A stretch of 64,000 nucleotides of DNA from Dudresnaya verticillata (lineage: Eukaryota), in contig OZ374558.1 of assembly GCA_977862235.1 (NCBI GenBank), forward strand, positions 1,364,001 to 1,428,000, in the 5' to 3' direction. The notes below the pieces were generated by a model. The model saw nothing but the letters and a program-made list of their open reading frames with translations. It searched no databases and was not told where the DNA came from. Position numbers and translations under genes: made by a program. Shown piece by piece: positions 8,920 to 54,282 of this stretch. Numbering within the stretch: the stretch's first letter is position 1; each line of letters opens with the position of its first letter.

Positions 8920-11061
8920 TGTGAATACTTCCCACTTAGTGTGTTTAGAAATTTAGAAAGGGATTACTTAGGAATTGAGTGCATAAGTGGACAGTGTTTG
9001 ATATTCAGCACGTCTCACTCAATTCAATAACCTTCGTACGAAGATGTGCAGTATTGCAAGCATAATTTTCCTTGTGAACAAATATAGAGTTAAGATCCGT
9101 TTGAAGTTGTTCTCCTGACTGGGACAGTGCTGTACCCTGTTGCGTAATCGGCGTGTCGTGTTCGTAAACACTACTACTATTGTCAAGATCTGAGCCACAC
9201 ATATGTATGTGTTTTTAGTATGAACAATAGATTATGCTTCTAATTTATGAACTATGTTACATTTGAATGGGATGAAGCAGGATCTAATGCAATTTACCTA
9301 GATCTATGGTATGTTTGTACTGTGATAATACCGAGTATCGATTGGATTCTTTGTTCTCGTTTCAGAATTTGCGAACGTACGTTGCTGTGTGTTTAAATAG
9401 GAAGTCCTATTTATTAGTAAAACAATTTCAGTCTGTTATCATAGCCCAAGGTACAAATAGAGAGAGTGTCAATCAAGAGTTCTATCCATTAAGTTTAGTG
9501 GTTCAGATATATATATCTGGCAGTTTTGAAACGGTGCAGCAGGGTACCCTACACATCGAGTCCTCGGGTCGGGCCAGCAACAGGTCCGACCTGTGGATAT
9601 ATATCCAAATGCACTATTGTATTGAGCTGTACAGCTTCTTCAAAGATGAATGGATTATTCATTAAAAATAAGCACTTAGATCCTCATCATGCCGTTAACA
9701 AGAAATATTTCGCACGAGGATGTCTCTGTGATGTACAGCGTAGTCCCTGTGCATCACGGGACAGGACTGTGGCGGAGGCAAGTTTCGAAACAATAGTTAC
9801 ACTGGCGTTCAGTACTGCAGTGCTGGGCTATTATATTTGAACGTTCATGAACGTTCAAATATAATAGCCCAGTGGGATAATGAAGGCACAAAAGTATCGC
9901 TCTGGAGCAATAGGATTAATGGTCCGCGACGACATGTCGCTCACGACAATTGCCGTTATGCAGCCGGAAAGGATCTCGAGATTGTGATGCTATTACATGG
10001 CTACAAGATGATGACCGTACGGCTCAATCAGCCGTTGCGAGCACTCGCATGTAATTTGATTGGCCGGCCTTAGGAAAAATCTTCTTTGTGCCCTTGTGCA
10101 ACGTGCATCACAGATCTCCATATTCGGCTCGAGTAGCGTTCGCAGCTGCCCAGATATATGTACATACGTGTCAATAAGCATATGCTCATATGTTCAGTGT
10201 GTGGGCCCAGGCCGACTGAACTGGAATTGATTCCTTCCGTCACCTTCGCAGTGGCCCGAACAACAGTACTGCTGCTATTGGGCCAGATCCAGCGGCCCAC
10301 TCCGACGCACCGCGGTGCGAGATCTCGCTGCGGAAACGTGCACACTTCTGGCCCTAGTGGCGCCATGGCCATGTATATTTTGTTTATTATTCTCGCGGAT
10401 TGGTACTGCTATGAGCCGAACATGTGAGCCGCACGGCCACGCACGCGACCTCGTATCTTTCGAGGACCATGTGGCCTGGGAAACCGCAGAGGGTGCCTGA
10501 AGCTGCAGCTCGCCATGCGCCATGGCGCCAGCATGCACTGCTGAACCGGCTCCGGAAGCCGCGATAGACGTTCAACGTCCGGAGTTCCGAACCTCGCCAA
10601 GCGACCCGCTACGGCGCTGCTGCGAAACATGTTTCGCCGCCGCTATCATATGATAGCCGATATCGGCGCTCAGCGCCGCAGCCTGTGGCGGCATGTCGAG
10701 CGCGACATGCGTGCACGCGCGGTCGCTCGGGCCAGACCGCCAGTACTGGCGCGATCAGTGTGTCATCGTCGGTCCAAGTGTTCTGGGGCAATTTGATGGC
10801 CTATTTCGGTTTGGCGCGCAATCATGTGTGAGTCTGGGTATTTATCGGATCGACCGGCGCGCTCGCCCCCCTCTCCCTCCCCCAGCATCCACACCACCAC
10901 AACCTGTCGGCTCCCTTGGAGCCCTTCCCTCCCTCGCTACACACTCCTTTCGCTCCTCCCTTACCCTACCGCGGCTGGCCGTGTGTACACGGCCCTGTGT
11001 GCGCGCGCGACGAGACTACTGCGCGCCCCATTCCCGCTGTGTGCCTTCCTGCGCTCTCGCC

Positions 11062-24199: not shown

Positions 24200-24787
24200 C
24201 GTGCCTTGCCTAGCTAGCTAGCTGTGCTCGTGCCACCGCCAAGACGCCGGCGGAGCCGCGCCCCGCCGCGCAGCCGCTCTTATATACTCGTCTCCGTCCG
24301 CGCCGAGGCAGCCGAGCCGACGCGGCCGACGCGGCCCGCGCCGCGCCGCCGCGCTTGCGGGCACATTGCGCGCCGCCACATCACGCCGAGCGCGCCGCGG
24401 AGGAGCGGGCCCGCTATCATAGCCGCGCCGAACGTCAAGTCAAAGTCCAGACACTCGGGGCAAATGCAAACACCAAAAGAGCAACACGACTTGCGCACTG
24501 TTCCCGCACTTTGCCAAACCACCGCTCTCTGCCCGTCTGCTGCTTTGCATTCACGCCGCCGCCGCCGCTGCCTGCGCCACCACCACCGCCCCCGCCTCAA
24601 ATGCACCCGTCCCCGCCTCCTCCGTCGCCGTCGCCGCCGTGTCGAATGCAACCACCGCTGCCGCCGCCTCCGCCGCCATGCCCGCCATGACTGCGCCCTG
24701 CTCCGCGCCACGCCTCGCGCTGCTTGCTCGCCCGTCGCGCCGCCGCCGCCGCCGCCGCCGCATAAAGACCCGCAGCCGCCGCTCCTC

Positions 24788-24878
24788 CCACCACCACAAC
24801 CACCACCACAACCACCACCACAACCACCACCACAACCACCACCACAACCACCACCACAACCACAACCACAACCACCAC
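24788..24878. repeat. (CCACCACCACAA)n / (CCACAA)n simple repeat just upstream of ATG 24886
   Basis: Directly visible. Confidence 0.95.
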
Positions 24879-24885
24879 CCGCGCC

Positions 24886-26235
24886 ATGCCGTCCCCACCC
24901 GTCCTCCTCCTCGCCCTGCACCTCGTGCTCCTCCCGCTCTCCATCGCCCTCACGCCCGAAACACGGCTCACAAACCTAACACTGGCAACCCAGGCCACCT
25001 CGCACGCCTACACCCACACCTTTGCTTCCCGCACCCGTGCCACCCTGTACCTCAACGGCCACCGCATCGCCGCCCTGCCCGCGTCAGGCGGTCGCGTTGT
25101 CATAACCCCGTCGCGCCCGCCGCGCCGCGGCGACGTCTACACAATCGTCGCCTCCCAACCCACCTCCTCCAAGTCCATCCGCCCTGGCGTCTTCTTCTCC
25201 TGCCCCGCCGCCCGCACCGGCCCCGCCTGGCGTGCCGCCTTTTCCACCGCCCGCGCCGCCCGCGCCACCCCCTGGCGCCGCCGCTTCTTCTACGTCCCCG
25301 TCTGCCGCTGGAGACGCGCCCGTGCCCGCGCCAACGCCTTCATCTGGCCGCGCAGCGCCTCCGCCGCCTCAGCAAACCAGCTTGCCCGCTTCCGCTTCGT
25401 CGTCGGCGCCGCAGATGACAAGACGTGCAAGGGCAAGCCCGCCACGCTCTTCGTCGCCGCCACCGACCGCGCCTGGGTCTTCCTCAACGGCCGCCACGTC
25501 GAAGACGTCCTGTCCAAGCGCCGCGCGCGAAAGGTCGAGCTCCGCCTTTCCAAGGGCGACGTGATCGCCGTCAAGGCCATGGACGTCGTGCCCGTCCGCC
25601 GCACGCCGCACGAGTATGGCTTTGCTGCAGACCTGCTTGTCGGTGGCCGCCATTTCACCACGCGCCCCGGGCGCGGCCCGTGGCGGATGGTCGCCATGTA
25701 CGACGCGCCCGACGCCGCCTCCAAATTTGCCTTTATGCGCAGCGGCTTTGATGACTGCGCGTGGCCCCGCCCCGTGGCCCCGCGCCACGCGCCGAGGTCC
25801 CGTGCCGCCGGCTTTCCGTTCCGCTACGGTGCCAAGTACGTCTGGGCGAGCGATGCGCAGCGCCCAAGGAGCGTCGTCTTTGCCAGAATGGTTGTTGGCG
25901 GCGGTGCAAATCGCTGCCGCAAGGTTGATGGGCAGGGCGATGACCCGTTGCCGGAGACGTGTCCGTGTGAAATGGTGCAATCGGCAAAGGGCTCGGTGTG
26001 CTACTACTTTAAGGACACCAGGAAGCATGTGTGCGACATGCGGCAGTGCGAACCCAAGTATGTTTGCACCGGCAAGGACATTTCGTCGTCTGGTGCACTC
26101 ATTTGTGTGCGAAAAGAGGTTGTCAACCGAATTGTTCGAAAGGAGGGTTACCAAGAGCCTGGCACGTTTTGCAAGCTCAAACACGACCCGCACCACATCT
26201 ATGTGCCGTACGGCAACGGCGCTTCGCAGTGGTAG
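24886..26235 (+). CDS. Secreted protein, 449 aa; putative carbohydrate-binding beta-sandwich module(s) plus Cys-rich C-terminal domain
   Basis: Hydrophobic signal peptide; two L-x-LNG...GDV units, FDDxxW motif; C-terminal CPC...CYYF...C..RQC..KYVC. Confidence 0.75.
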   Translation: MPSPPVLLLALHLVLLPLSIALTPETRLTNLTLATQATSHAYTHTFASRTRATLYLNGHRIAALPASGGRVVITPSRPPRRGDVYTIVASQPTSSKSIRPGVFFSCPAARTGPAWRAAFSTARAARATPWRRRFFYVPVCRWRRARARANAFIWPRSASAASANQLARFRFVVGAADDKTCKGKPATLFVAATDRAWVFLNGRHVEDVLSKRRARKVELRLSKGDVIAVKAMDVVPVRRTPHEYGFAADLLVGGRHFTTRPGRGPWRMVAMYDAPDAASKFAFMRSGFDDCAWPRPVAPRHAPRSRAAGFPFRYGAKYVWASDAQRPRSVVFARMVVGGGANRCRKVDGQGDDPLPETCPCEMVQSAKGSVCYYFKDTRKHVCDMRQCEPKYVCTGKDISSSGALICVRKEVVNRIVRKEGYQEPGTFCKLKHDPHHIYVPYGNGASQW

Positions 26236-26441: not shown

Positions 26442-26490
26442 GCACACACACACACACACACTCTCTCTCTCTTTCTCTCTCCCTCCCTCG
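26442..26490. repeat. (CA)n(CT)n compound microsatellite
   Basis: Directly visible. Confidence 0.9.
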
Positions 26491-27139
26491 CTCGCTTACG
26501 TGTACCCTCTCCTCCACTCAGGATCCCAGTAGTAAACGACACAAAAACTCTCAATCCAGGGGATCTCTTCGTGCTTCACACGCGTGGCAAATAGCAATCA
26601 TGCATTTGCAGTGCTCCTTCCAAGGGTTCAACGCGTTACGGCAGGCCATGTCAGGGGCTACATCTGTTTATGGTTGAATTGTGAAGCAAGAGAATAGACA
26701 ATTACGGCAGAATACCGCATTTGGTTAGTAGCCTACTACATTTGCTCGTGTGGTGTGTATTACTTGAAGGCGAGAGGAGAGTTGAAGTCCAAAGTCGGGA
26801 TATGTCAAACATGAGCCGGCGTTGATTTCGAGCAGAAATCAGAAGGTTTGCAAAGGCAGCGAGCTTTCCTCGCCGCCGACTCTTTCTTGGTCTCTCCCTT
26901 GAAGCTGACGCTTGACTGGATTGCTGACCGGCCCCTTATGGCGGCAGTCGCCATTTGGAAGAAATAAAGTGACGCTCTCCGACATGCGTCCCGCACGGCT
27001 GTCAAGGCAAGAGTGAAAAAATCCTCAGCGTCCGGGCACAGCCTGTACGTAAAACAAGTCAACCGCAGTTTCAGTGTCACAGTTTTCAAACTTCGAAGAC
27101 TGCTCTACTCTTCTCGATGCTTTTTCCATTGTACTCACT

Positions 27140-28711
27140 ATGACCTCTTTTTCCCCATTCCACTCCCGATACACAGCCATTGTGCTTCTCTGCGTTGTGG
27201 CATCTTCCCAGAGTTGCACCTCTGCGCACAAGACGGGAACGCTGACGGAGACCAAGTTTTCAATCAATGAAGAATTCATTCTTACAAACGAAGCCATCGA
27301 CGTTGCAGAGCTTATTGAGAAGGTGATTAAAGAAGAGCCCCCTTCTATGGATGGAGTTGATGCAAGGGGCGATGCAAGCGATAGATCTCTGTTAGTACAA
27401 ACTAGGCAAGAGCAAGCCTTGAGCAAGCAGAAAAAGATGAGAAGAAGGTTGAGGAGAAAGTTCCGGAATTGGGCAAGGAAATATCGTAGAGCAGAAAGGC
27501 GGAAGATTAAGAGAGGAAAAGTAGATCAGGCTTGTCTTATCAACGACTACGAAGAGCGTCATGGTTGCTGCGAATTGAAAATTCGTGTCGAGGACGAAAG
27601 GTATGAAAGGAAGACAGGGAAGGCGCCGTTGGTGAAGTTTGGGAAAAAGGTTGCCTTCTGTGAGAAAGTTACTGAGGAGCTGTTCAACTCGTTGACAGAG
27701 GAGAGCATCCATCTGCCGGCTGACGACGAGAATAAACTCGTCTGTGACCTGAAGGAAATGGTAGCTCTGTTCCCACCAGATCTTCAGCCTGTCGCCGCGT
27801 TTTCTGTGAAGGCGTCTGCGCTCAGCTCCGGAAATGTTACGACACAAGTCGAATCGACGACGCGAAAGTCAGTAGAAGAGAAAAGGCAGCGCTACAAGGC
27901 CAAGCTGAAGAAATCGCAGAAGCGCAGCGAAGCGAGAGCGAAAAGGAGGGAACAAGCTCGTCGCGAGCATAGGGAATACAGGATACATCGTATCCACAAT
28001 AGTAGGCTGGCAGGGTTCTTGAGTACCATGACAAAACGATCGAAGCTAAAGCATAGAAAGGCGTCTCGACTGGGCGTGGACGTTTTTGACAAGTTTATAG
28101 TCGAGATGAAGAAATTGTACAAAGCCAAGAAGACTGCGGTCTACTTCCATGCTGCAGGGAAGAAATGGAAGACGTGTGCGTTTGTTGAATATAAGACAGC
28201 GTTATCCTCGACATGTTTGGACCTAGAAATCATTGATCCTAATGCCGCAGAGATGTCCCGCCCTCCTATTTGGGGCTGGGAATCTGGAAGAGCAGCCACT
28301 TACAAAACCACCAGTCCAGAAGAGAAGATGGATGCCGTTGATCGCTGGGATTGGTTATTCAATACGTTCAATAATGGCGGTGGCGATGACGGCGGCGACG
28401 GCGCTGACGGCGCTGACGGCGCTGACGGCGTTGACGGCGAAGACGACTATTACGACGAAGACGAAGATGAAGATGAAGATGATGAAGATGATGAAGGTGA
28501 TGATGACGAAGATGACGACGACGACGACGACAACGATGACGACGATGACGACGACGGGACGTCTTCTTCTTACACAAGCATCTACCTTTTCGGATCGCCG
28601 TCTCAATGCTTCACAGTTGATCTGTCGTTCTCGTGCTTCGCAGTGTGTTGCGATACATTGTATTCGTACAGCATATTTTGTTCTACACCTAATCTAAGCT
28701 GCTTCGCATAG
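27140..28711 (+). CDS. Secreted precursor paralog 1 (523 aa, intronless): K/R-rich body, Asp-rich spacer, C-terminal 6-Cys peptide
   Basis: Signal-like AIVLLCVVASS; W-x2-C-(A/G)-(F/W)-(V/I) motif shared with paralogs; ends CFTVDLSFSCFAVCCDTLYSYSIFCSTPNLSCFA. Confidence 0.8.
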   Translation: MTSFSPFHSRYTAIVLLCVVASSQSCTSAHKTGTLTETKFSINEEFILTNEAIDVAELIEKVIKEEPPSMDGVDARGDASDRSLLVQTRQEQALSKQKKMRRRLRRKFRNWARKYRRAERRKIKRGKVDQACLINDYEERHGCCELKIRVEDERYERKTGKAPLVKFGKKVAFCEKVTEELFNSLTEESIHLPADDENKLVCDLKEMVALFPPDLQPVAAFSVKASALSSGNVTTQVESTTRKSVEEKRQRYKAKLKKSQKRSEARAKRREQARREHREYRIHRIHNSRLAGFLSTMTKRSKLKHRKASRLGVDVFDKFIVEMKKLYKAKKTAVYFHAAGKKWKTCAFVEYKTALSSTCLDLEIIDPNAAEMSRPPIWGWESGRAATYKTTSPEEKMDAVDRWDWLFNTFNNGGGDDGGDGADGADGADGVDGEDDYYDEDEDEDEDDEDDEGDDDEDDDDDDDNDDDDDDDGTSSSYTSIYLFGSPSQCFTVDLSFSCFAVCCDTLYSYSIFCSTPNLSCFA

Positions 28712-29466
28712 TTCGATGCCAACCTTCTTTCTATGTCTCACAGTAAATTGCAATCAGCACAGCAAATGTTTTCACCACCTTGTTAGCTAAGAAGCTCTAC
28801 GCTATTTCTACTCACATTGCGCTCTTTTGTAGTCCATTAAGGATCGGGAGGAACCGTCTATTGTACAAAACTTGTAGGAGAATCAACCACCGAACGCTTG
28901 CTTTCGAGATGCCCATTGATGTGCAAGACGATGCGGTAGGTTTAGAACGTGAGCACGTGATGGGGAACAGCTGCTCTTGCAGGCATGACCCGCTCGCAAA
29001 GTGGCCTACATGCGTCAAAGCGTTTCAGCTGGCCTATGTCCAAACCTATCAGCGCTTCACCCATGACATTTGAAAGGAAGACCCCTCCCGCAAAGATTCA
29101 GGTCAACGTGAAAGGTGGTAGGTAATGTTGTCAGTGTATCTTGTCTCAGAGAGGGCATACAGGCCCTCTCTGAGACAAGATCAGCCTGCACAGGAGCAAT
29201 TATGTTGACTTGCTTCGAATAGCGCCCCCGCGCAGAGAGATGCGACCCAACTCGCCGAAATATTGTTTGCGAGAGAGATCGCAAGGTCTCTGTCTTGTTG
29301 TGCGGAAACGTCCTTCTTAAGAGCTGCATGCGTCAAGTCCTTCCAGAACAAAACAACCTATACCATTGCGGAACCCACAACCTTCTCTCTCTTTCCTGCC
29401 CTAAAGAGACCTGCTCCTATCCGGATACCCTCACGGAACCACCCACCACCCTTCACCCAACCCAAT

Positions 29467-30096
29467 ATGTCGCTCCGAATTGTCCCCCTTGTGTGCGCAC
29501 TCTTTGCATCACTCCTCATCGTTAGTCGTTTTGCAGTAGCAGCTCCAACAGATGAGAAAATGTCTCAGTCGACATTGTACAAACCAACCAGATTATTTTC
29601 CGCCTTTCAGCACATTGTCGAAAGCGTGGATTGGGTTGGTCTTCTCAACTCTGTTTCTCAATACAACTCTGGAAACTACCACAACTTCTTGCACAACGAC
29701 GCCTTCGGAAACTTTTCTGAGCAAATACCCGTCTACAATCCCCCAAGCACAGAGCAAGCGAATGCATTGAAGACCAAGCTGGAAGCATTGGAGCTTCTCG
29801 CCCTCAACGCCTCACTCTCTCCGCAAAACAAAACAGACTGGCAACCATTTGCTTCGGGACTAGTCTTTTCTTTCGGCAATGAAACTGCTGCCATGGCTTA
29901 CCACTGGGAGAGACAGCGGTGGATAACATGTGGCTTTGTCAATCTTACTAGCACTGTCGTAGACAAAAATGAGTCTGTCCGAATGTGTGCTTCAATGCAA
30001 TCTGTTGGTCTCTCACCTCCGACCAGGGCACCTATTGAGGGTCTTGACTACATTCTCCCAGCCTCAGGTTCTTCCTCCAATGACGGTGATGACGAT

Positions 30097-30139
<43 letters not shown>

Positions 30140-30311
30140 ATGACGAAGAAGAAACCTCCAATCGAGACTATTATAGCGACTACTACTACAACACAAGTGA
30201 CGCCACCGAGGTTAACTTGGCATCACCCCAGGTAGTTTGTACGTATCCAACAGTTGCGCACGATGAACTTTCCATTCCGTTGCATGAGCAATAATGCGAC
30301 AACTAACCAAG

Positions 30312-30351
<40 letters not shown>

Positions 30352-30471
30352 TAACACGCACATTGCGCAGGTACCACCGACAGAGTGTACGACGCGTGTT
30401 TCTCGTTCTGCTGTCTGAGCTCTTACGAATACGCCGAGTTTTGCAATGGCCAATACGGGATGTGCTACTAA
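29467..30471 (+). CDS. Secreted precursor paralog 2 (290 aa); exons 29467-30238 and 30371-30471
   Basis: Signal peptide; intron 30239-30370 GTACGT...TACTAAC...CAG; spliced end CTTDRVYDACFSFCCLSSYEYAEFCNGQYGMCY. Confidence 0.88.
30313..30348. repeat. (CT)n microsatellite in the paralog 2 intron
   Basis: Directly visible, abuts the branch point. Confidence 0.95.
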
Positions 30472-33400
30472 CCGACAAGAGCAGCAGCGTGTCTGTCTGT
30501 CTCCAGACACCTGCAAGCTTTGTCTGTACCGCAATCTTGTTCCGCAACGGCGGGAAACTCCGGAAGATCTTGAACGATCAAAGACACCTGCCCAGTTGGT
30601 GGTCTCCTTCCCGCCGCGCAGCGGAAGCTTCTTCTTCCCACGGAAGCGGAGAAAGGACTCTTACGACATGAAAAGAAATGGAAGCCTTTACTTGTAAATA
30701 GAACTCCATTCGACAAACCGATGACAACTAAGATAAGAGGATAGAAGCACTTCTAGGCGCTCTTGTCAAGGTATAGGAAGGAGGAGGAAAAGGATGAACT
30801 TGTGAGTGTCAAATCCTTAGGGAGGGAGGGCGGGAAAAGGATGAACTTGCGGAACTCTCTACGAAGAGTTTCCGGCTCCCTTAAGTACAGCCTAGATGTC
30901 CCCGAGAGTAGCGTACAAGGCATTGTGGAGTATCGCCCGGGAGTCTTAATGGGAGTCACTGTTCCTGCATTTGCGAACCATCTTGAGTCGGCGTCAATCC
31001 TGGTGACAACTATTCGGTGGACCATATACAGTACCCTAGATACCCCTTCGGGACGCTCAGCGAAGTTCGCTGTTCTTGGTCAGTCTTTTCATACCTGTAA
31101 AGCGGCATCTTTGACACAACATGAAAATGCGCAATCCGGCACTTAATACGACTTGTAAGCCTTGTCCCTTCGCGATGTGATAGGACTAAACTGATGTTGA
31201 GCGTGACTTACATTTACAAACAAACACTCTTGTGAACAGGAGGTCCGCGCAGACATGCTGCTGCAACGTACGATATGCGTGGTACTGGACATGGGTTGTG
31301 CTCGATGCATCACGTATCGAATCAGTCAAGAGCTTCTTCCTCTTCTTCATATTCTCAACACGTCGGTTTGCACGCGGAGGCGAGCGGAGAGCTAGCTCCA
31401 GCTTCGCGGGGATATTTTCGTTATCCGGAGTCGAAGAAAACTGCTGGTGCGCGTGAACTCATAGAGTAAGCGCAGCAAGCAGGCGGCTCGTCCTTATACC
31501 ACTCGAGCGCTCGGCAAAAGTTGCCTGCGGGATGCGCGGCGCTCATTGTGAGCTGTGTGCGATCCCATCTCACAGTAGCCCCACGGCAGAGCCGTGGAAT
31601 GCCAGTCAGAGTTCAAGCGGAAAGCCTGGCGAGGCGTGCGCGGCGGCGCTGAGCAGTCTCCTCAAAGCGCAGCAGAATAGATCGACTTGGCCACGAGGCG
31701 TCGTGACAAACATGCCATCCGACTTGCGACGGTGCGACGACGCCTCCGCATGACGAATGCTTGTTCACGTTCGGGGCATTCTGCGTGCAATGCTGTTTGA
31801 GTGGCCTCGGCCGGACGCGGGGCGCAGCGAGAGTCCAGCGAGGCAGCCGGGAACGCGCTCAGCGGAGAGCTTGCAGCGAGCAGGCGGTGCAGACCAGCGC
31901 GTGCTAACCGACGGCGATGCTTGCTTCGTTGCAGGCGTTGTGCCCCGGCGCGCGTCGCCCGGGCTTCCCCGCGATGGCTGCCGCCTGCAGCACCAGGGGA
32001 GAGGGCGGTGGGGCGGAGAGAGAGCGCGGCGGAGTGGAGCGGCGCGAAAAGCGCGGGAAGGGACGGACGGAAGCATCGAAAGAACACCTTTTTTCGGGCC
32101 CCGTCTGTGGAGCTCCGACGCTTCAAACTCCATCCGCTGATGCTCAGCTCCGCAGCTCCTCCCGCGTCGCTGCCGCCCGCGAGCGGTCTTCGCCACCGCC
32201 CCGCGCTCACCAACTCCGCCCGATCCGCCTCACCTGCGCGGGCGTCTTGACTGCTCCGCTCCAGGCCCCGCGTCGATCCGCGGTTTCGGTCTTCGCGGGT
32301 GGCTACTCCGCTTCTGCTGCTCTCCCGAACTCTTCAACGAGTTGCGTCGAGATTTGCTGCCGCCGCTCTCAATGTCGCAGAATAGCATCCCAACGAATGA
32401 AGGGCCATGGCAAAGGCGGCCCCGGCCGACATGCGCGCTACGCTGTCGAGGAAAGCAGCTCGAGATGAAAGTGGCAGCACACGTCGTGGTCCAGGCAGTG
32501 CCGCTGTGAACATTTCTGTGAGGGCTCTGTCGGCACGCGTCGCTACAGCGCTGTTGGGATGTATCAGCCACAACAAGGCCTTTGTCCAGATCACCGTGTG
32601 TTCCGCAAAGAAATACCGCAGGAGTACGGTGGATGTCGTACAAGGCGCCAAGAGGTGGCGCATTCGTCGGCTTTGCTCCAACGCAAGTCCCCGTAGGGTC
32701 TTTCTCATTGGATTCAAGTTCAGACAGGCTTAGTCATGATGATATCGGGTACCGCCGCGCCCTCACGGGTTCGAAATGGTGCTTGCAGACGAGATCCCCG
32801 ACCATGCATGGTTGCGATACGATTCTTCTGGGGCTCCATGGAGCGAAACAGTCTCCACCGGCTCGCCCGCGGGCACAGTTCAAGCCATCATGAGCATGCC
32901 CCGCCGTCGCATACACCGTCGCAACCACTTCTGCAAAACGTCGCGGCTGGCAAGCTACACCCCCGCGAACGTCCGTTGCAAGTTCCGATGCTGCGCAGGC
33001 GCCCGTCGGCTTCGCTCTTCTCTCTCGGCAAGGCTGCACTGGTGGCCACTCTCGCATCCCACTTTACAAGCCGCCTGCTGTGCCCGCGCTTGCTCGCTGC
33101 TTGCCTTCCCGCAGAAGCAGGAACTGGAATTGTGAGCTGCGGCCCTGCGCGGTTCGACAAGCTTGCTGCTCAATTTTCGCCTTCGCGGGTCCCCAATGCG
33201 CTTGCGATTATAGCCCCCGGGCTCTTTGCCCCAACTCTTCGGGAGCTGCTTTTGCCGTCAATTGTCGCGCGCGGGAGAGGGTCAACGCTCGCAGGGTCGC
33301 CACGAAGGCAACGAGACCAACTTGCGCGCTGCGCTGGCGTTGTCGCGACTGCTGTTTTTCAAACCTGCCCGCCTGCAAGTGACTAGATCACAGGCGATTG

Positions 33401-34546
33401 CCTACGCGGCACCACGCCACCTTCCGAGGTACTCTGCCCTGCACGGGGTGCAAACACGCCCCAACAGACTGCTTACTCAGCCATACGAGCTTGCTCGATG
33501 AGTTCAAGTTGAGGCGCGCCCGACACGATGACGTTGGCCGCTGCCGCGCTCGCGCTCGCACATTTTCGGATTATCCTTTATTGCCGACGCTTCGGACACT
33601 ATGAGTGTCGACCAACGTCCCAGCTGCTTTCCGTGCCCAAAGGTGAATCGACATCACCAACATGGAATGCAAGTTGTTTGTTCAGACCACTCTCAGTCTC
33701 CACGTTGAAGGAAAGTGGGAAAACGCTTCCACTCCATTCAGAGTATCCCCGGCAATCCTGCCTTCCTGCCGCCAACTTGCTACGTCTTGCAATAGCTGAG
33801 CTCGGTATTCTATGCATCGTACTGGAACCTGTCGTGCCCCGTTTGTATGGAATGTATCGGTCGGCTGTTTAGCACTGGCGCGTTTCTTTCTTTCAGGGTG
33901 ACATCCTGATAGCCTGGTTCACGAGTATTAGCGACACTTCGCCAGGTCCTACCAACGCTGTGCGGTGAGTATGATGCATGCGCTGGGCAATGTCGATGCG
34001 GAAGAAGGACGCTTTCGTCTGCATGTAATTAAGAAGCACAGGAGGCTTTGTGGCGTTCAGCTTCCTTGGCTGAAGTTTCTGGAAGGCAGCTATGCGAATT
34101 GGATGGAATTACGCCTGAGCACAAGTTGTCGATGATGGGAGACGTCTGTACCAGAGGTCATGCTGTCCTGCTCGCGCTCGAATTTGTTGTCGCCATATCC
34201 AGAAGCTTGCAAGGCATGTCGTGTTTGCGTCGCCATTCGAGCAACAGCCGGCTTCTCTTTCCAAGTTCTGACGCCGTCGGGCAATCTGCACTTTCGCCCT
34301 CGTTGGAACCGTGTGGATGGGTGTATCTGGCAGTCGAAACCGGCGAGGTGCTCTTCGAATTATTGTCACAACTGTGCGAGAGATACGCATTGGACGATGC
34401 ACACAGAGAATTGTGCGAGCTCGTTCAAATGCCATGTGTAACACGAATACAGCAGCGCAACGAGTCAAGAGAGCTTGTCTCAGTTCGCCAAGGAGTCACC
34501 GGAACAAACCTAGAGAACGCCAGGTTACACTCTTCTTTCAGCTACA

Positions 34547-35643
34547 ATGTGCGCCAGGGGTATTGCTCTTGCTGTACTGCTTGCCTCAATGCTTTCAGTT
34601 AGCATTGCCAGCAACCAGCAAACTAAAGCCGAGTTTGTTAGTTGCAAATTGCTGGAAAACGACGAGGACCTCATGTTGATAGAGCATGTCGAGGAGCTAG
34701 ACTCAGTGGACTGGGTCGGGAAATGCAAGTCGAAGTCCAAGCTCAATACTCGAAACTTGAAAGAGTTTGTTTACAACGACTACTTCAGCATTGCGCAACA
34801 GCCAAAAACCATATGTAGCGCAGAGTCAGCAGCAGTGAAAGAAGTGCGAATTGTGCTATCTGAACTCGAACAGCTAGCACTGAACGGGAGCCTCACTGCC
34901 GAAAACAAGACATACTGGCAGGCGTTTGCGCATGAAGCGGTAAACGCACTTGTCAACGAAACTGCAGCGTTTGTTTACCATGAGAAGAAGGTTCAGTGGG
35001 TGGCGTGCGGGTGGATTAATCTGCAGAAGATTCCTAGGATTGATGAAGATTGTTCAATAAGGATGTGCGCTTCGCTGCTTGCGCTTGGGCTGGCGCCACC
35101 GGACCGCCTGCCGGAAGAGGGCAAGGATTACGTCCCCAGGAAGCCAACTTCCAAGGGACCAGCTGGGCCGATTCCTCCTCCCCCCAGACACAGGCGGCTC
35201 GAGCTGACCGAAGATGCGCAGAAGGAAGCCATCCATGAAGAACGCAATGTTGTCAATTCGAAGACGCCGAATAGATATGCTCGGGACGCACAGTCTGGGC
35301 GAGTTTCAAATACCCGCACAGTGCCGTGGCACCGCAACCGCGAAAGCATCGAGGGGGCTGTGCGGTATGACTACGACCCAAACAGCATGACCGATGTGAA
35401 TCTATTCGGTGACATCAATAGTGGATGTAAGTGAACTTTGAATAGCGTTGCACGCGATCGTTGTGCCTTCGCGCAAGCAGTTTGACGCGACGAATGCAAC
35501 ATCTGACACCGACTTTTGACTCTTGTTTGATTTTTGAGTTTGTAGGTGGGTTTGCGGATGAAAGCAGTAGCTGCTCGGCTTTCTGTTGCTTCAGCATGTA
35601 TTCCATGTCGACGTTTTGTTATGGATTCTACGGGGAATGCTAG
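34547..35643 (+). CDS. Secreted precursor paralog 3 (325 aa); exons 34547-35426 and 35546-35643
   Basis: Signal peptide; shares SVDWVG, LExLALNxSL, NKTxWQxFA, NETAA, RMCAS, EGxDY with paralog 2; intron 35427-35545 GTAAGT...CTGAC...TAG; spliced end CGFADESSSCSAFCCFSMYSMSTFCYGFYGEC. Confidence 0.88.
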
Positions 35644-43058: not shown

Positions 43059-46000
43059 AGCGTTCGGCTTGGACGTGGGCCTGTCCAGCGCCTTTGGCGG
43101 TTTGTCTCGTTGCGTGATGGGCGTCTGTTCCGGCTCGGCGAAGCGTACTCGACGAGTTGATCGCCGGAGGCGTTGGCCTTGGGCCTTGGACGCTCGATCA
43201 GCGGTCAGTGGATTGTTGCGTCTTCAGACGAGTTCATCGCTTGCAGCGCCTTGCTTTGTGCTTGCACGGTTAACGTCTTCGTTATCGGACGCGCTTTCAG
43301 CGGAGTCATTGTTCTGATTCGGCGGTGCCGTAGCGACGTGTTCCAAACGGGTGCGAACCCCTGGGGTACTGTCGTCGTTGGAGACGGATTGTGAAGCGCG
43401 GTCGTTGGGATCGGCGGGGAAGGGCGAAAGCTCTGCCAACCCACGGCTGCGTGACGCGGTGATCGTACGCTCTTGCGGATCTGCCGCAGTATGCGAAGTG
43501 TCTGCGTCCTCTTCCGGGTCCGCTGGTGGTGTGCTTGGGGTAGTCATCCCTTCGTCGTGTGACGTGGGGGCGACTGCTCCCTGCTCCTCAGGCGGGCCTG
43601 GTGGTACGACGATTGGAGGGGCCGCCTGACCCGGTGGGGTCGGCGCCCAGACCACGCGGTCTCGGGACAAACGTTCCCGCTCATCACGTCCCTTGTCGAC
43701 GGTTACTGTTTCGTTATCAACGTGAGTTACCCGGTATGGCCCGTCCGCCACTGGCGCCAGCTTATGCTTACGCTCTGCGCGATCCGTGCTCCCGCCTCGG
43801 GCGAAGCATTCCTTACGTACGAATACGAAGTCGCCTACGGCGATTGTTTCCTTCGATTTCCTTAATCGGGTATCGAAGTTTCGTTTGTAACGTGCTTGAG
43901 TTTTCTCTAACGACGCTTTAGCGGTTCCCATCAGTGCGGCCAGCCAGGTTCGCCACTTGGTGTAGTATTGCCCCGCGGTGGGTACGCTTTCGAGCGACGG
44001 TTCCGCTTCGAGCGACAATGGTCGTGGTGGCTTCAACAGCACCAATTCAAACGGAGCGAGATGCGTAGACGAATGCAACTGTGTGTTGTATGCGAACGTC
44101 AAGGCATCCGTGAACAGGTCCCAGTATCTCGGATGATCCGCAACGTAGTGACGCAGCGAGGCCAGGATGGTTCGATTGAATCGTTCTACCTGGCCATTGC
44201 ATTGCGGATGGTACGTCGTGGTGAAGAGGTTCTCCACTCCCAAAAGACGGCAGATATCCTGAAACAGCTTAGCCACGAACTGTGGTCCGTTATCGGACAA
44301 CAGTTTCTTGGGGGGGCCGTACACGAAGACCCAATGTCGTACAAACGCCTTAGCGGTTTCCAATGCCGTAATACCACGCAGTGGGACCGTCCGGACCAGC
44401 TTCGAGAAGCGGTCCACAATGACGAGTAGGAACTTGTTTCCTCGCTTCGTGCGTATGAGTTCGCCCAGGATGTCGATCGATACAAATTCGAGAAGCTCGG
44501 TTGCCGGGAACAACTTCAATTGCTTGGTGTTCTTTCGTAGTAATACTCGATTCTTAGCGCAAGTTACGCAGTTGCGGACGGTCGCATAGCAGTCCACTGG
44601 CATCGATGGCCAATAGTATTCGCGTCGAAGCGTATGATACAACTTACGCCCCCCTGGGTGCCCTGCCAACTTGGCGTGGTGCCGGAGGTGGAGTAAGCGA
44701 GCGCGTAACGCGGAGGGTACGACCACTTGCGGACGGACTTCCACTGTTCGGACCAACAGGCCCTGTTCATCCGTTGCGAACGGTAATATGATTCCGTCAT
44801 CCAGACGCTTCTTGACATCATTACAGTACTTGTCATCGCCTTGGGTGTGTACCAACTCCTCATGCGTCACTTGACGAAGGAGTACCTCATCCGCCGGTGG
44901 CGTGTTGTTGATCAACACTTGGTCGAACTCTTCGAACTCTCGCTCGGCGAAGGCGACCTCGCCTTCGGCGTCTGACAGATCTTCCTGTGACGTTTGATGG
45001 CCGTCTTCGACGTAGCTTCCGTGATAGCACGGTATATCATCGTCAATGGGCTCGACGGTTTCTCCCTTCGTCTGTAGACGCGAAAGGGCATCTGCCTGGG
45101 TATTGAGGTACCCCTTTTTGTACTTCACGACAAAGTCGAACTCGGAAAGGCGAAGGCGCCACCGCATTAACCGTCCAGAGGGGTCGCTGATTTCCATCAG
45201 CCACCTCAACGACTAATGGTCCGTATGGACTGTGAACGACTCCATCTGGAGGTAAGGTCGCAGCGTCATGACGGACCTACTGCGAGGCACTCCTTTTCGG
45301 AGACCGAGTAGTTACGCTCTGGAGCGGTGAGCGAGCGGGACCAGAAGCCGAGCGGCTTACGTTCCCCGTCGGGATGCGTCTGAAAGAGAGCGCAGCCGAC
45401 CTGATACTCGCTTGCGTCACAATCGACGGAATTGGGGAGACCCTGCTGTGGTAAAGCCAATATAGGCGGATGATTCACGGCCTCGACGAGCGTACTGAAC
45501 GCTTTGGCTTGTGTCTCATCAAACGGTTGTAACCGGAAGTCCTGTTCCTTCCTCAGCAACTTGTTGAGGGGGGCAGCGACATGCGCGTATCGCGAGACGA
45601 ACCGTCTGTAGACGTTACAAAGACCGAGGAAACTCCGTAGCTCCTTCTGATCCCGTGGATGCTTGGCTTCGCGTAGCGCGGCAGTGACAGTTCGGTCAAC
45701 TTCTAACCGTCCTGGACGTATGACGTGTCCTAAGTAGTTGACGGTCGGGGTGAAGAAGTCACACTTGATCAACTTCAGAGTCACCCCGGCGCGGTGCAAT
45801 GTCGAAAGGATCTCGTCAACATGACGGAAGTGACTATCGATGTCGTTGGAGAAGATTATTACGTCATCGAGGTAGACGAGGCACGAACGCCACTTGTAAC
45901 CAGCGAGTATTATGTCCAACGTTCGTTGAAACGTAGCGGGTGCGTTCGTGAGACCGAATGGCATACGCTTATAGCGGAACAGTCCGGCGTGGCACGTGAA

Positions 46001-47560
46001 CGCAGTCTTGTCGCGGTCTCGCGGATTGATCGGCACTTGCCAGTACCCACTGTTACAGTCTAGGGTGGTGAAGACGTTTGCTTCCCCTAGACTGTCGATG
46101 CATTCGTCGATACGCGGCAGGGGTACGTGTCCCGTATGGTTACTGCGTTTAAGCGACGGTAGTCCACGCAAAAGCGGAGGGTCCCGTCCTTCTTGGGGGC
46201 GAAGACCACTGGTGACACCCACGGCGATTGTGCGGGCTCGATAACCCCTTGACGCAGCATGCGGTCCACTTCCGCTTGAGCGAGTTCTCTTTGCTTCGGG
46301 CCCGCTCGGTAGGGCGGGGACGATATTGGTCTAGAGCCGGGAAGCAAGTCGATGTAGTGCTCCGTGGTTGAGATTTCTCCCAACGAACCGTCCCACATAG
46401 ACGAATACTTGCGCAACATCTCCTTAAGCCGGCCTTGATGCTCGGCGGGGAGATGTCCCAGGTCCAAATCGTCTACTGACGGAGGTTTGGCAGTGGTTGC
46501 CTCGATAGACTTCGTGAAAGTATCCGGCTGTGCCGCAGTGTTATCATTCGTTTGAAAACGGAAATCTTGGTTTGCCTTCTCTTCCTCGGCTTGTTCCTCG
46601 GTGAGGCCCAAAACATCGGCTAGACTTACGTGACTGGGGAACACTGCTGTCGGATGTGGTAACGCCGTCGCGACGACTTGGGCCTTGGCCAGCGCCTGCG
46701 GGCGGGGAGAGAAGTTGGCAACCAGAATGCGAAACGCTTTTAGCGGCTCCACTTGAGCAATCCCGTTCGTAACGGCCAGAACTTGTTTGTCGTACAGCGT
46801 TACGAGCGGTTGAATCGTGATGATGCCGGCGCGCTCGGTGGTCACCGATACCCATTGCTGCGCCTTAGGCGGGATGATCGCGCGCTCGGCGACTCGGATC
46901 TTGGGTGACGTCCTCCCTTCGGCCTTGCCGTATTCCTGTTCCGTTGGTACCGGAGGGTACGACGGGGGTCGGCGCAGCGGGCGGCGCGTTATAGGGACGC
47001 GAGTCCCGTCATCCAATTCAACCTCGCGACTTCGCGGATATATTGCTTCGACGAAGCGGTCGCAAAAGTCGCAGCCGAGTATAACCGGCGCAGCGAGTCG
47101 TTCGCAAACGATCAGTTCCAACTTGACGACTCTCCGTCCTAGACGAACGACCAGGTCGATGGTGCCTCTTGTCTGGATCGCCTTATTGTTGGCGTCGGCT
47201 ATGACGGGGAGGCTCTTTGCCACGATGCACGATCGCGCTTCCAGCGGAATGTCGTTAATGCGAATGAAATTCGGACCAGCTCCGTGTCGAGAACAGTGAG
47301 TTTACGTGCCAAGGTACTAACGGTTGCGCCCAAATCGGCGTACACCTTATAGTTCCTCTTGGCCATTACGAACAACTGCCCTCGCGTTTGGGGGGCTGGT
47401 ACCTTCGCCATGGGCGTTTTAATGACGTCTGTGACGACTCTATCCGCCCGTTGGCGTCATCGGTAACTAACTTCGGGCCCTCCTTCCGTGTCAGCACCTG
47501 AGGCCTAGGCCTCTCGTCGTGGTGCGACACCCCAGTGTCAGGAGTTGGTGCCCGAGTTAG
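42846..47560 (-). pseudogene. pol: Gypsy B pol (protease, RT, RNase H, integrase, chromodomain) with several frameshifts and a stop
   Basis: [51 protein letters not shown]...CVTC, IDILG, SDNG, ERFNRT. Confidence 0.95.
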
Positions 47561-50121
47561 TTTTTCGCCTGCGGCGGTGGTTGTGGCGCTTCATAGCGAT
47601 TGATCATCGTCGGATGACGTTCTGCCGCGTGCGGCATGGGTCCGCCTCGTGGCGATTGTGGTCGTGCAGCACGGCGAGCAGCGTCGCGGGTCGCGCGTTC
47701 CTTGCAACGTACATACGCATCAGCGCGGACACCAGCCTTCTCGGCTTCGGTTAGTCCTTCATAGTTGGTAATAACCTTTATGAAGTCGCTCATGCAGAGG
47801 AAGCAGTCCGGCGCGATGTGTCCGCGGGCGTAGCATTGGTGGCATACCAGCTGCCGACGCGAGTCTTGACGGGGCGGGCCTCTGTCCTGACATCCGGGCC
47901 TTTCTCGGTGGACGTGAGGAGCATACTCGGAATAGGGGACGCGTGGCGCTGGTACGACCGAGCGCCCAAAGGCGAGAGCAGGGTCTATATCCCTTTCGTC
48001 TTCGTCATCGACGCAACTGTCCGTCGGTAGAGCCGAGGTTGGCACCGACGCTTGCTCGTCTGCCAAGTACAGATCGCCTTCGGCGTGTGTTTCCATGTCA
48101 TCGAAAGGGCGACTAACGTCTCGAAACTCGACGGAGGGCTCCGCTATCATAGCGCGCGCTCCAGGCTTGGTGCCTCTAGTCTGTGGACGCAGTAACCCTC
48201 GGGCATCGCCGATGGCGGATCGCGGTGTGCGTACGGCTTGAGCCGGTGTCAATAGGTCACGTCGGGCTGACGCGGAACCGGCCCTGCCGTGTCGTGCGCG
48301 GTTGGCATCCCCTTCGTCTTGTGCGAAATGGACCAGCCGCTCAAATGACAACTCCGCCCTTGGCGTTTCTTCTCGGAAGCGAGCGACCAGGGACCTGATC
48401 GACGGGTCTAACCCGTCGATGTACAGCGTCATCTTTTCCCAATCGGGATATACGTTACCGCAACGAATACACGCACCGGCTAGCCGCATCCCATAGGTCG
48501 TCTTGTCCTCGCCTTGTTTTTGGGCAGTCGACCGTAGGGCGAGGACAGCGTCCCTGATCGCCGCTGGCGTAGTATACGTACGGAGGAGGTACTGTACCGC
48601 CTCCGGATACGAAGACACACGGCCGCGATGGCGAGAAGACGTCGACTTAACGGAGCGGAATTGCGTGGCTGCCGTACCTCGCAAGAATTACGGCAGCGCG
48701 ACGAACGCTTGGGCTTCGCTCATCTCCAGCGTATCGGCTTCATCCGCGTAACGCGTCAGAAACTCGAGGACCATGACGGGGTCGCTGCCGTTGAAGGCGG
48801 CGTCCTTCATGGTCAGCTCCAAACGCTTGATATGGTCCTTGACCTTACCCGTATCGCGCCCTGAGCGTTTTTGCCCTACGTCTTTGAGACGGTACGTCCT
48901 GTACGATAATAACTGATCGAAAAGGGGGTTGGAGGGGCGTAGCTCCTTCAACCCCTTGAACCGCTTTCCGCGAGGTCTTGAGGCACTGCCGAGAGTTGGA
49001 AAGTCGTCGTCTTCAGACGAAGAGTCTGATAACTCTCCGTCACTTGACGAGTCCGAAGAGGACGAGGATGAGTCCCCTCGTCGATGACGATCCTTCTTCC
49101 GTCTCTGACGCAGCTTGCGTCGGCGTTTCTTCCGATCCTTTCGTCTGTGACGATCTTCGCATGAGCTCTCGTCACCCGACGGTGGACCATTGCGCCACTT
49201 GGCGGTTTCGAGACGCTCTAAGCGAGTCCTAAGTCGCTGAAAGCGTTCGCGTGAGCTAAGCTCGGAATGCGAATGAACCGTTACTGCCGGCGGTGGTTGT
49301 GTACCCTCGCCTTGGGCGTTTTGGTTCGTCAATAGACGGTCGAGGTCGGATCGAAGTCCTTGTAGGGCGCCGTTTCGATCCTCTTCCAACGTCTGTAGAC
49401 GACTTGCGATTCCTCCGACACTGTCGTCCAGCAACCCGGCGAATCGAGCGAGCATCGCATCGTCCTCTAAGACGCACACCTCTCGGATCCGTTCGCGTGG
49501 TATCGTTACGTTACTCACGCGGACGGCCGAGGGTGACGCCGTTGGCGGTTGGCTTTCGCGGTTTGACCGGTCGGGCGTCCCTTGCGCCCTTTGACTTGGC
49601 GACTTCGGCTTAGCCGGCGAACACCCGGCACTGCCGTGGGGAGTGGGGCAACATGCCCCTTGTGTCAATGGTTCGTCAGCGACGTTGCGCTCCGCGGAGC
49701 GCCCTTGATCGTCGTTGACGTGGTTGGTTGGTTGATCCGAAAGTTCCGGTTGTCCCTCGACGATGTCGGCTTGTGTTCCGTCTACGACGTCCTGTTGCTC
49801 GGCTTGTACTGTATCAGCCGAGTCAACATAGGAGCGGTAGGTGCGGAGGGCCGATCCCTCGGGGACTGAGGTGCGGACGACGACGGGGTTGTGGCGCGTC
49901 GGCGGGGGAGGTAACTCTCCTCCGTTGAGCGACGCGTGGGAGCCTGCGTGGCCGTGGCCCGGGGGTAGCGTTGGGAACGCCGACGCGATCTCGGGGCTCA
50001 CGAGGCGCCCAGACCTCGTTGTCATCCGCTGTAGCGACCGTTCTGACGCGGGTACACTCCGAGGCGTCGAAGACGGTCTTCTTGAACTTGGGCCTCGCGA
50101 CAGCGGCGGTCGTGAGGCCAT
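47557..50121 (-). pseudogene. gag: Gypsy B gag with one in-frame TAA (48688-48690)
   Basis: Two same-frame ORFs; YRTYRL motif; zinc knuckle CHQCYARGHIAPDC; ends G AAA AAC TAA. Confidence 0.9.
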
Positions 50122-50230
50122 GATACAATCGTAGAGTTGCTTGAACGTCGTGGATGATTAGCGACAAACGTCTGAAGACGGAGGGTCGGACGTCGCACGA
50201 CGGAGTAACTCGTTGAAACGTAGCACAATT

Positions 50231-53608: not shown

Positions 53609-54202
53609 ATGCAGAACGAAGAACACGCAGACCCTCCCGTTACGGAACCTAAAGCGGGTGACACTACCCCCGCTGCGCGCAGTCTGCGCAGTGAAGGAGG
53701 TGAAATCCGTTCCGGAGTGGAGAACCCAGAAGACATCCTTAAGGGTGCTGCTGGTAAAGCTCCCCGTTCCCGTGTCGGATCAGACGCCTCGAAGAAGGTA
53801 GCTCCGCAACCCAAACCGGAATCCCATCGGGTCCACTGGGTCCTGTAGGAGGTCATTCCTAGGGTGTTAGAGCATCTCCGATTGGAAGTACAACCTGGAA
53901 TGGTAAAAGAGGTGGAGATATTCCTCTCGGGAACTGTTCCGTCTTTGGTTAATTCCTATCTGGAGAAGCACCTTCCTCGGATAGTGCAAGCTTTGATTCT
54001 ACAGGAAAAGGTGGCCGCCGAGCTCGAGAGCCAGATTGCTCCCGGTATGGCAAGGCCTCCCGCTACGGAAGCTTTTACTGAGCAACCACCGTTACGGAAT
54101 GACTTCCCGGTCGAGGGAAAAACGCAGCAGCCGCAACAACCGCCCGTTATGGGATTACAGCCGGGTACAGTACCCTCAGGGCAACTGCCACCGGCTCCCT
54201 AA
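53609..54202 (+). pseudogene. Gypsy C ORF1 with in-frame TAG (53846-53848)
   Basis: Homologous to 1239-1919, where this codon is TCG. Confidence 0.75.
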
Positions 54203-54282
54203 CGGATTCTCAACATCAATACGCCCCTACGGGACCAACGCACACTCAGCCACCGTCACGGTATTCTCCTGGACACGTAGCT

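Follow-up and report, generated by a model that had tools for sequence, protein, structure and literature searches.

A multigene family of predicted secreted proteins with a C-terminal six-cysteine module in the red alga Dudresnaya verticillata

We describe 3 tandem genes, here called G1, G2, and G3, located in a stretch of 64,000 nucleotides from the genome of Dudresnaya verticillata (assembly GCA_977862235.1, contig OZ374558.1, positions 1,364,001 to 1,428,000 of the forward strand), which we refer to as the window and whose own numbering is used throughout. Judged by their sequences, the 3 proteins belong to an uncharacterised multigene family that contains a discrete, conserved six-cysteine module at the C-terminus. 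Each protein would consist of a predicted signal peptide, a core with an alpha+beta fold, a disordered linker that varies between members, and the six-cysteine module. Our tentative reading, to which we assign a probability of about 0.4 and which is drawn by analogy with known proteins, is that the module is a binding or anchoring domain that would remain attached to the core in the extracellular matrix, rather than a peptide that is released. The features of the 3 genes are as follows.

27140..28711, + strand: G1, a member of the long (G1-type) subfamily, a single exon encoding 523 amino acids, from the open reading frame (ORF) and its translation
27140..27211, + strand: G1, predicted signal peptide, residues ~1 to 24 (Kyte-Doolittle value of 2.66, heuristic)
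28079..28288, + strand: G1, conserved core segment (W-x2-C ... C ... R-P-P-x-W-G-W-E), from the hhalign alignment of the family profile to G1
28376..28558, + strand: G1, acidic (Asp/Glu/Gly) spacer of 61 amino acids
28577..28708, + strand: G1, anchor motif (S-I-Y-L-F-G) and six-cysteine module; the cysteine pattern alone covers 28607-28702
29467..30238, + strand: G2, exon 1, with the predicted signal peptide, the core, the poly-Asp spacer, the anchor motif, and base 1 of the first cysteine codon
30085..30153, + strand: G2, poly-Asp/Glu run of 23 amino acids
30239..30370, + strand: G2, predicted intron of 132 nucleotides in phase 1, with a GTACGT donor, a (CT)n run, a TACTAAC branch-like site, and a CAG acceptor
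30371..30471, + strand: G2, exon 2, with the remainder of the six-cysteine module and the stop codon (tblastn with the relative P0001, E = 3.1e-5)
34547..35426, + strand: G3, exon 1, with the predicted signal peptide, the core, a Pro/basic spacer, the anchor motif (V-N-L-F-G), and base 1 of the first cysteine codon
35427..35545, + strand: G3, predicted intron of 119 nucleotides in phase 1, with a GTAAGT donor and a TAG acceptor
35546..35643, + strand: G3, exon 2, with the remainder of the six-cysteine module and the stop codon

The cysteine pattern C-x8-C-x3-CC-x9-C-x6-C was followed by a stop codon after 0 to 2 residues in G1, G2, and G3 (0 to 1 residues in the spliced G2 and G3 proteins). 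A search of all 6 frames of the window with the shorter pattern C-x3-CC-x9-C-x6-C gave exactly 3 matches, one at the end of each gene, as compared to a mean of 0.005 and a maximum of 1 match in 200 mononucleotide shuffles of the window. An earlier note on this DNA, made from the sequence alone, had described 3 precursors with identical cysteine spacing at their ends, and this description was borne out both by the gene models and by the number of matches relative to the chance level. It had also claimed that the module of 2 of the genes appears only after splicing. This agrees with the models of G2 and G3, both with canonical GT-AG introns, in which the donor interrupts a TGT codon behind its T and the acceptor is followed by GT, such that splicing restores the first cysteine of the module and the frame continues to the stop codon.

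A hydrophobic stretch of 11 residues was identified at the N-terminus of all 3 proteins (Kyte-Doolittle values of 2.66 to 2.95), in line with the signal peptides noted previously, with the prediction being a Kyte-Doolittle heuristic and not a SignalP result. Secretion of G1, G2, and G3 is predicted because of these hydrophobic N-termini and because 3 N-x-[ST] sequons are located at equivalent places in G2 and G3. The number of cysteines after the predicted signal peptide was 14 in G1, 2 + 6 in G2, and 6 + 6 in G3. Since these numbers are all even, all cysteines in the 3 mature proteins are predicted to be disulfide-bonded.

A word-index search with exon 1 of G2 identified 1 relative among 460 candidates. 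This protein, P0001, is 291 amino acids long, shows 43% identity to G2, and spans signal peptide, core, and entire module within one ORF. A family profile built from the window proteins and P0001 was then scored against 1.84 billion protein cluster representatives, among which G1, G2, and G3 themselves were absent. The search recovered 64 proteins at E ≤ 1e-3, 28 at E ≤ 1e-10, and 8 at E ≤ 1e-30, with the 64 relatives corresponding to clusters at 50% identity. Thus, the pattern and profile search that the earlier note had proposed as a check yielded a family of 64 relatives. A word-index search with an alignment of 51 sequences gave 3 relatives among 5217 candidates.

The cysteine pattern was found in a strict form in 16 and in a loose form in 8 of the 64 relatives, and in all 24 proteins it ended 1 to 4 residues before the C-terminus. 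Five of the cysteines were invariant in an alignment of the module with 26 rows, and the sixth was conserved in at least 90% of them. Aromatic positions were located after the second cysteine (C2), before the CC pair, 4 residues past the CC pair, and before the fifth cysteine (C5), and a Ser or Thr residue was conserved after the CC pair. A hydrophobic anchor motif, h-x-V-[DN]-L-h, was found 5 to 17 residues ahead of the first cysteine. The core contained an invariant W, C, C, and D as well as a near-invariant R.

The linker between the core and the module ranged in length from 48 to 114 amino acids, with a median of 66, in the 19 of the 25 module-bearing proteins in which both landmarks were found by pattern. 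Its acidic fraction was 0.05 to 0.26 in the relatives versus 0.44 in G2, and its composition ranged from acidic to basic across the family. Because both length and acidity vary, the linker appears to behave as a tether and not as a conserved functional segment. Poly-Asp runs were considered as a family feature and rejected, as they were found only in G1 and G2.

The 3 window proteins differ in how closely they can be aligned to each other. By their sequences, G2 and G3 are clear paralogues, with an identity of 37.7% over 199 amino acids (BLAST, E = 2.7e-35). No BLAST match linked G1 to G2 or G3, and a profile of the 3 sequences revealed only the module as common to G1 and G2/G3 (46 columns, E = 5.7e-9). 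When the family profile of 51 sequences was aligned to G1 with hhalign, the match included residues 314 to 522, which represent the second half of the core and the module, over 157 columns (probability 96.6%, E = 6.2e-10). Similarly, when the core was defined by the W-x2-C motif, a second cysteine two strands further on, and R-x6-D/E, G2 and G3 aligned throughout and G1 over the second half. The middle domain previously described as shared by all 3 proteins is therefore supported for G2 and G3, and for G1 only through the family profile and within the latter half of the core.

The spacers were acidic with poly-Asp/Glu in G1 and G2, which confirmed the earlier observation of poly-Asp in 2 of the genes, and rich in Pro and basic residues in G3. 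An Arg residue had also been reported ahead of the terminal region in each protein. All 3 residues exist, but their positions are not homologous and they do not align with each other. The Arg in G1 precedes the acidic spacer and is separated from the module by more than 100 residues, whereas those in G2 and G3 are located ~22 to 27 residues ahead of the first module cysteine.

The 40 relatives without the cysteine pattern provided information about the intron. As many as 29 of them break into unrelated sequence right after the first cysteine, and the residue that follows was K in 15, T in 9, E in 3, and G in 2 proteins, as counted by eye, with K, T, and E each accounting for ~6% of the residues in these relatives. 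The start of the unrelated sequence with CK, CT, or CE fits the read-through of an ORF into a GTAAG, GTACx, or GTGAG donor at the position of the intron in G2 and G3. Among the other 11 proteins, 10 contained partial or variant modules and 1 had no cysteine at this position. In Gracilariopsis chorda, the gene model PXF47962.1 (P0017) contains the full module, and its sibling in a 90% cluster, P0065, is an unspliced ORF that ends with ...NCK. The module was encoded without an intron in the G1-type proteins. At the level of sequence comparison, these patterns show that a phase-1 intron in the first cysteine codon is conserved and that most family members encode the module on a separate exon, and it is this comparative signature that serves as the evidence for the splice models of G2 and G3.

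It was also noted that the ORFs of P0032, P0034, P0041, P0050, and P0063 break inside the module, after C-x3-CC-x-S-x-Y-x-T-V, which may point to a further intron position in this branch, distinct from the first. P0032, at least, stems from metagenome records of the Joint Genome Institute. Scans of metagenome contigs for the DNA of the relatives gave 260 pattern matches with a family alignment and 28 with P0032, with no relative among them. In the window, (CT)n/(TC)n microsatellites were observed at ~26470-26500 and at 30316-30350, the latter inside the G2 intron and directly upstream of the TACTAAC sequence, which is yeast-like.

Organism names were looked up for 30 of the relatives and obtained for 3, all of which are red algae of the Gracilariales: CAN8072161.1 from Agarophyton chilense, PXF47962.1 from Gracilariopsis chorda, and KAI0560746.1 from Gracilaria domingensis, with profile E-values of 6.7e-14, 2.9e-13, and 4.7e-4, respectively. 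The Gracilariopsis protein corresponds to UniProt entry A0A2V3J0M1 and is annotated as "hypothetical protein BWQ96_02348", while the Agarophyton protein is an "unnamed protein product". The Gracilaria protein is of the long G1 type, and its automatic name "protamine" reflects only an insert rich in Lys and Arg. The named proteins match the window genes in their core motifs, C-terminal module, and intron position, but they are only 17% to 23% identical to P0001 and have no described function. From these sequences, the family is likely to be specific to red algae.

To place G1, G2, and G3 among the relatives, a quick maximum-likelihood tree was inferred from the 3 window proteins and 63 relatives, with the exclusion of P0019, which at 110 amino acids is below the limit of 180. 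The tree was divided into 2 clades with a Shimodaira-Hasegawa-like approximate likelihood ratio test (SH-aLRT) support of 98. The first clade included the long G1-type proteins (11 rows, with the G. domingensis protein among them) and 13 others, with G1 as the sister of P0025 (SH-aLRT 96). The second clade included the G2/G3-type proteins (11 rows) and 31 others, among them the proteins from G. chorda and A. chilense. Both deep clades thus contain sequences from Gracilariales. Within the second clade, G2 and G3 were located on different sub-branches together with proteins from other species (support 85 to 90), and the tandem array therefore looks old rather than recent. We also noted that the same longest contig size was reported for P0005 and P0008 (5940 bp), and likewise for P0037 and P0059 (57484 bp), which suggests that family members are clustered in tandem in other genomes too.

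No paper on the family was found by accession, nor among the papers listed by keyword (red-algal secreted or Cys-rich proteins, knottin, hevein). Published work on related subjects, represented here by portions of each source, describes the Asparagopsis secretome with 332 predicted proteins and a VWA family (PMC12115072), VWA proteins and the cuticle in Chondrus (bioRxiv 10.64898/2026.01.12.698930), and, in a review, the macroalgal extracellular matrix (PMC8307928). The family is not mentioned in these portions; the supplementary tables, which lie outside them, could list members.

A structure of P0001 was predicted with AlphaFold2 from an alignment with 51 rows and showed a mean predicted local distance difference test score (pLDDT) of 81.4 and a predicted template modelling score (pTM) of 0.75. 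The core (residues ~35 to 200) was modelled as an alpha+beta domain with pLDDT values of 84 to 97, in which 3 longer helices precede a sheet of three strands, with the invariant W-x2-C motif and the second invariant cysteine on the sheet. The pLDDT values were below 50 in the linker (residues 223 to 243) and 65 to 92 in the module. When the module of G1 was folded alone, with an alignment of 26 sequences, the model had a pLDDT of 63 and a pTM of 0.34 and consisted mostly of helix or coil, with 2 short helices, one of which covers C-x3-CC. The structure prediction of the peptide that had been suggested as a check thus gave a model of low confidence for the module in isolation and of moderate confidence in the context of the full-length P0001 protein.

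Searches for known relatives of these sequences and models gave no match to a described family. In Pfam, no match was obtained for G1, G2, and G3 at E ≤ 1, nor for 26 members of the family at E ≤ 0.01. Sequence searches against the PDB gave a best E-value of 0.8 for one query and no match for the other. With the P0001 model, the best E-value in Foldseek was 0.79, with none of 253 matches at E ≤ 1e-3, and a wide VIA-align search found none of 48,161 chains at Z ≥ 2, nor any of 253 in a second look; according to the notes that accompany these tools, a blank result proves neither a new nor a different fold, although a complete blank is in itself unusual. Foldseek gave 0 matches for the low-confidence model of the G1 module, and the ESM Atlas contained no usable match for either P0001 or the G1 module. 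The earlier statement that the cysteine pattern fits no family that can be named is in agreement with these results.

The module nevertheless resembles several known peptides and domains in part of its features. Knottins, or inhibitor cystine knots, such as those of conotoxin framework VI/VII, have the same cysteine order (C-C-CC-C-C) and are likewise small, secreted, and located at the C-terminus of a precursor. Their disulfides connect cysteines I-IV, II-V, and III-VI around a beta-hairpin core. In contrast, the loops of the module are 8, 3, 0, 9, and 6 residues long, 2 short helices are predicted where knottins have the beta-hairpin, and there is neither a match in sequence or fold nor a conserved processing site. 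As in hevein/CBM18 (PF00187) and fungal CBM1, the module is small and locked by disulfides, has conserved aromatic residues and a Ser around the CC pair, and is connected by a low-complexity linker to a larger domain. Here, however, the six-cysteine module is C-terminal and is found in a red alga, the wall of which is not known to contain chitin. The spacing in hevein is C-x8-C-x4-CC-x5-C-x6-C. Membership in the hevein/CBM18 family was rejected, since PF00187 was not matched by G1 at E ≤ 1 or by the 26 members at E ≤ 0.01, and since the conserved Gly and the signature S-x-aromatic-G-x-C-G are absent from the module alignment.

The earlier note had been reminded by the C-x3-C core of the cysteine-stabilised alpha-beta (CS-alpha-beta) defensins. 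In these defensins, C-x3-C in a helix is paired with C-x-C in a strand. The comparison fails at the level of sequence, as the module contains C-x3-CC but not the C-x-C partner, and no PDB sequence was matched. The pro-proteins of Spaetzle, TGF-beta, and NGF also contain a signal peptide, a folded or semi-folded pro-domain, and a Cys-rich C-terminal part, but their ligands are dimers of ~100 amino acids with a conserved protease site, whereas the module corresponds to ~35 to 45 amino acids and has no such site. A glycosylphosphatidylinositol (GPI) anchor was also considered. The signal for such an anchor is a hydrophobic tail of ~15 to 20 residues after an omega site with a small residue. It was rejected by inspection, as the last 20 residues include polar and charged residues and 4 cysteines, with 0 to 2 residues after the last cysteine and no hydrophobic tail.

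We prefer the interpretation that the module is an attached binding or anchoring domain. A small, aromatic-rich, and disulfide-locked module on a flexible tether would be a carbohydrate- or partner-binding unit by analogy with fungal CBM1 and plant hevein/CBM18. Solely by this analogy, it would hold the core in the wall of sulfated galactans and cellulose or cross-link it there, and the family would represent glycoproteins of the extracellular matrix with a tethered Cys-rich binding module. Several observations weigh against this interpretation. No carbohydrate-binding module, lectin, or other family was matched by sequence or fold in the searches described above, and the restriction of the family to red algae rests on the 3 of the 64 relatives for which an organism name is available. 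Furthermore, a single K or R residue is located 4 to 8 residues before the anchor motif in ~11 of the 25 module sequences, as judged by eye, and cleavage at a monobasic site might occur in some members. Finally, the pLDDT values of the module were 78 to 92 in the full-length P0001 model versus 60 to 69 for the G1 module alone, which hints at packing of the module on the core, in a comparison that is weak because both the proteins and the alignments differ.

Such packing would be expected if the protein formed a single globule, in which the module packs back against the core, the linker is a long surface loop, and the cluster of cysteines staples the fold of a secreted lectin, inhibitor, or small enzyme. 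The pTM of 0.75 for the whole P0001 model, reached despite ~60 disordered residues, also points in this direction, and the invariant W, C, C, and D and the near-invariant R of the core may mark a defined site. However, besides the mismatch between the models compared, a linker of the observed lengths with runs of, for example, 20 Asp residues would be unusual inside a single domain, and the module is located on a separate exon. We consider a single globule to be somewhat unlikely. The earlier note had instead favoured prepro-proteins that release a small disulfide-rich peptide with a role in signalling, recognition, or defence. In such a precursor, cleavage in the linker would free ~35 to 45 amino acids, and the core could act as a chaperone or latency domain in the manner of the pro-proteins of Spaetzle or TGF-beta. 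The overall architecture is consistent with a precursor, with a signal peptide, a large N-terminal part, a variable spacer, and a small Cys-rich end next to the stop codon, as are the separate exon of the module in most members and the basic residues ahead of the anchor motif, and the C-C-CC-C-C framework is known from many secreted toxins and antimicrobial peptides. Yet, no column conserved as basic, whether mono- or dibasic, and no other conserved cleavage site was found before the module in the alignment of 25 module sequences, at least 5 of which, including G1, lacked any K or R in the 12 residues ahead of the anchor motif (by eye), and the 3 Arg residues in the window proteins do not align. 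The supposed pro-region is moreover the most conserved and most confidently folded part of the protein, unlike typical pro-regions, and the release of a peptide is therefore not supported. The conserved h-x-V-[DN]-L-h motif ahead of the first cysteine also suggests that the functional unit extends beyond the minimal peptide. We regard such a release as unlikely.

Quite improbable, in our view, is the related idea that the module represents a new cystine-stabilised fold, specific to red algae, which would be cleaved off a folded carrier to serve as a diffusible ligand, for example in the recognition of gametes or in cell-cell recognition in florideophytes. No peptide signals are known to us in florideophytes, a point at which no search was aimed. 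If this idea were true, the tandem and deeply diverged paralogues would represent a repertoire of ligands. Finally, the genes could be decaying duplicates in a region rich in transposons, with the cysteine pattern as a frozen relic. The window is indeed rich in long terminal repeat (LTR) retrotransposons, but all 3 reading frames are intact, both introns have canonical sites that restore the frame and the cysteine codon, every cysteine of the module has been kept in copies that are only ~37% identical or less, and the same features are kept in the 64 relatives. We find it hardly credible that the genes are non-functional.

Within this transposon-rich window, the family genes contain 0 to 1 short introns. 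A Ty3/gypsy LTR retrotransposon was identified at 43224-50157 on the - strand, with frames that are broken over several ORFs, and included the following parts.

47557-50157, - strand: gag-like part of the gypsy element
45266-47301, - strand: protease and reverse transcriptase
43224-45212, - strand: integrase (Pfam Integrase_H2C2, rve)

At E ≤ 1e-20, 746 relatives of the gypsy integrase were found. Organism labels among the 120 matches listed were Chondrus crispus for 12 sequences, Agarophyton chilense for 2, and a bacterial metagenome-assembled genome for 1. Identity in these listed matches reached ~69% in alignments that covered part of the query, and the Chondrus copy with the best score was 56% identical. 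Among the named copies, the integrase most resembles those of C. crispus and A. chilense, and, together with the Gracilariales names in the six-cysteine family, this makes a florideophyte red alga the most likely source of the window. A Ty1/copia polyprotein at 60867-63998 on the + strand, which extends beyond the end of the window, contained gag, pre-integrase, integrase, and the start of RVT_2 in an open frame of 1044 amino acids. Two gag-like ORFs, at 1-1503 on the - strand and at 54103-55659 on the + strand, were similar over long stretches, with an N-terminal part rich in Ser and Arg and a conserved C-terminal part, and from this similarity they are probably 2 copies of one further retroelement family.

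In the Pfam scan of the neighbouring ORFs, only retrotransposon domains were matched. An uninterrupted ORF of 1330 amino acids at 4960-8952 on the - strand, in a part of the window that is richer in AT, had no Pfam match at E ≤ 0.01 and may encode an uncatalogued protein of a mobile element or represent a large host gene. Upstream of G1, at 24766-26235 on the + strand and with a GC content of 70%, another ORF encodes poly-Thr, a hydrophobic signal-like segment, and a Cys-rich C-terminus that differs from the module. It had no Pfam match and may be a further gene for a secreted protein beside the cluster.

To our knowledge, hardly any extracellular protein of red seaweeds has been characterised. 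The walls of these algae, with their agars and carrageenans, are important both ecologically and industrially. The family defined here is sizeable, with 64 clusters, and apparently restricted to one lineage, and its core is predicted with confidence and has no detectable relative in fold. What is new is a six-cysteine C-terminal domain on an exon of its own, in a previously undescribed family of predicted secreted proteins. With the rule that a phase-1 intron is located in the first cysteine codon, the module can be recovered for no fewer than 29 database entries that are truncated. The result is a small, defined domain that can be taken to expression, to the mapping of its disulfides, and to assays of wall binding or release.

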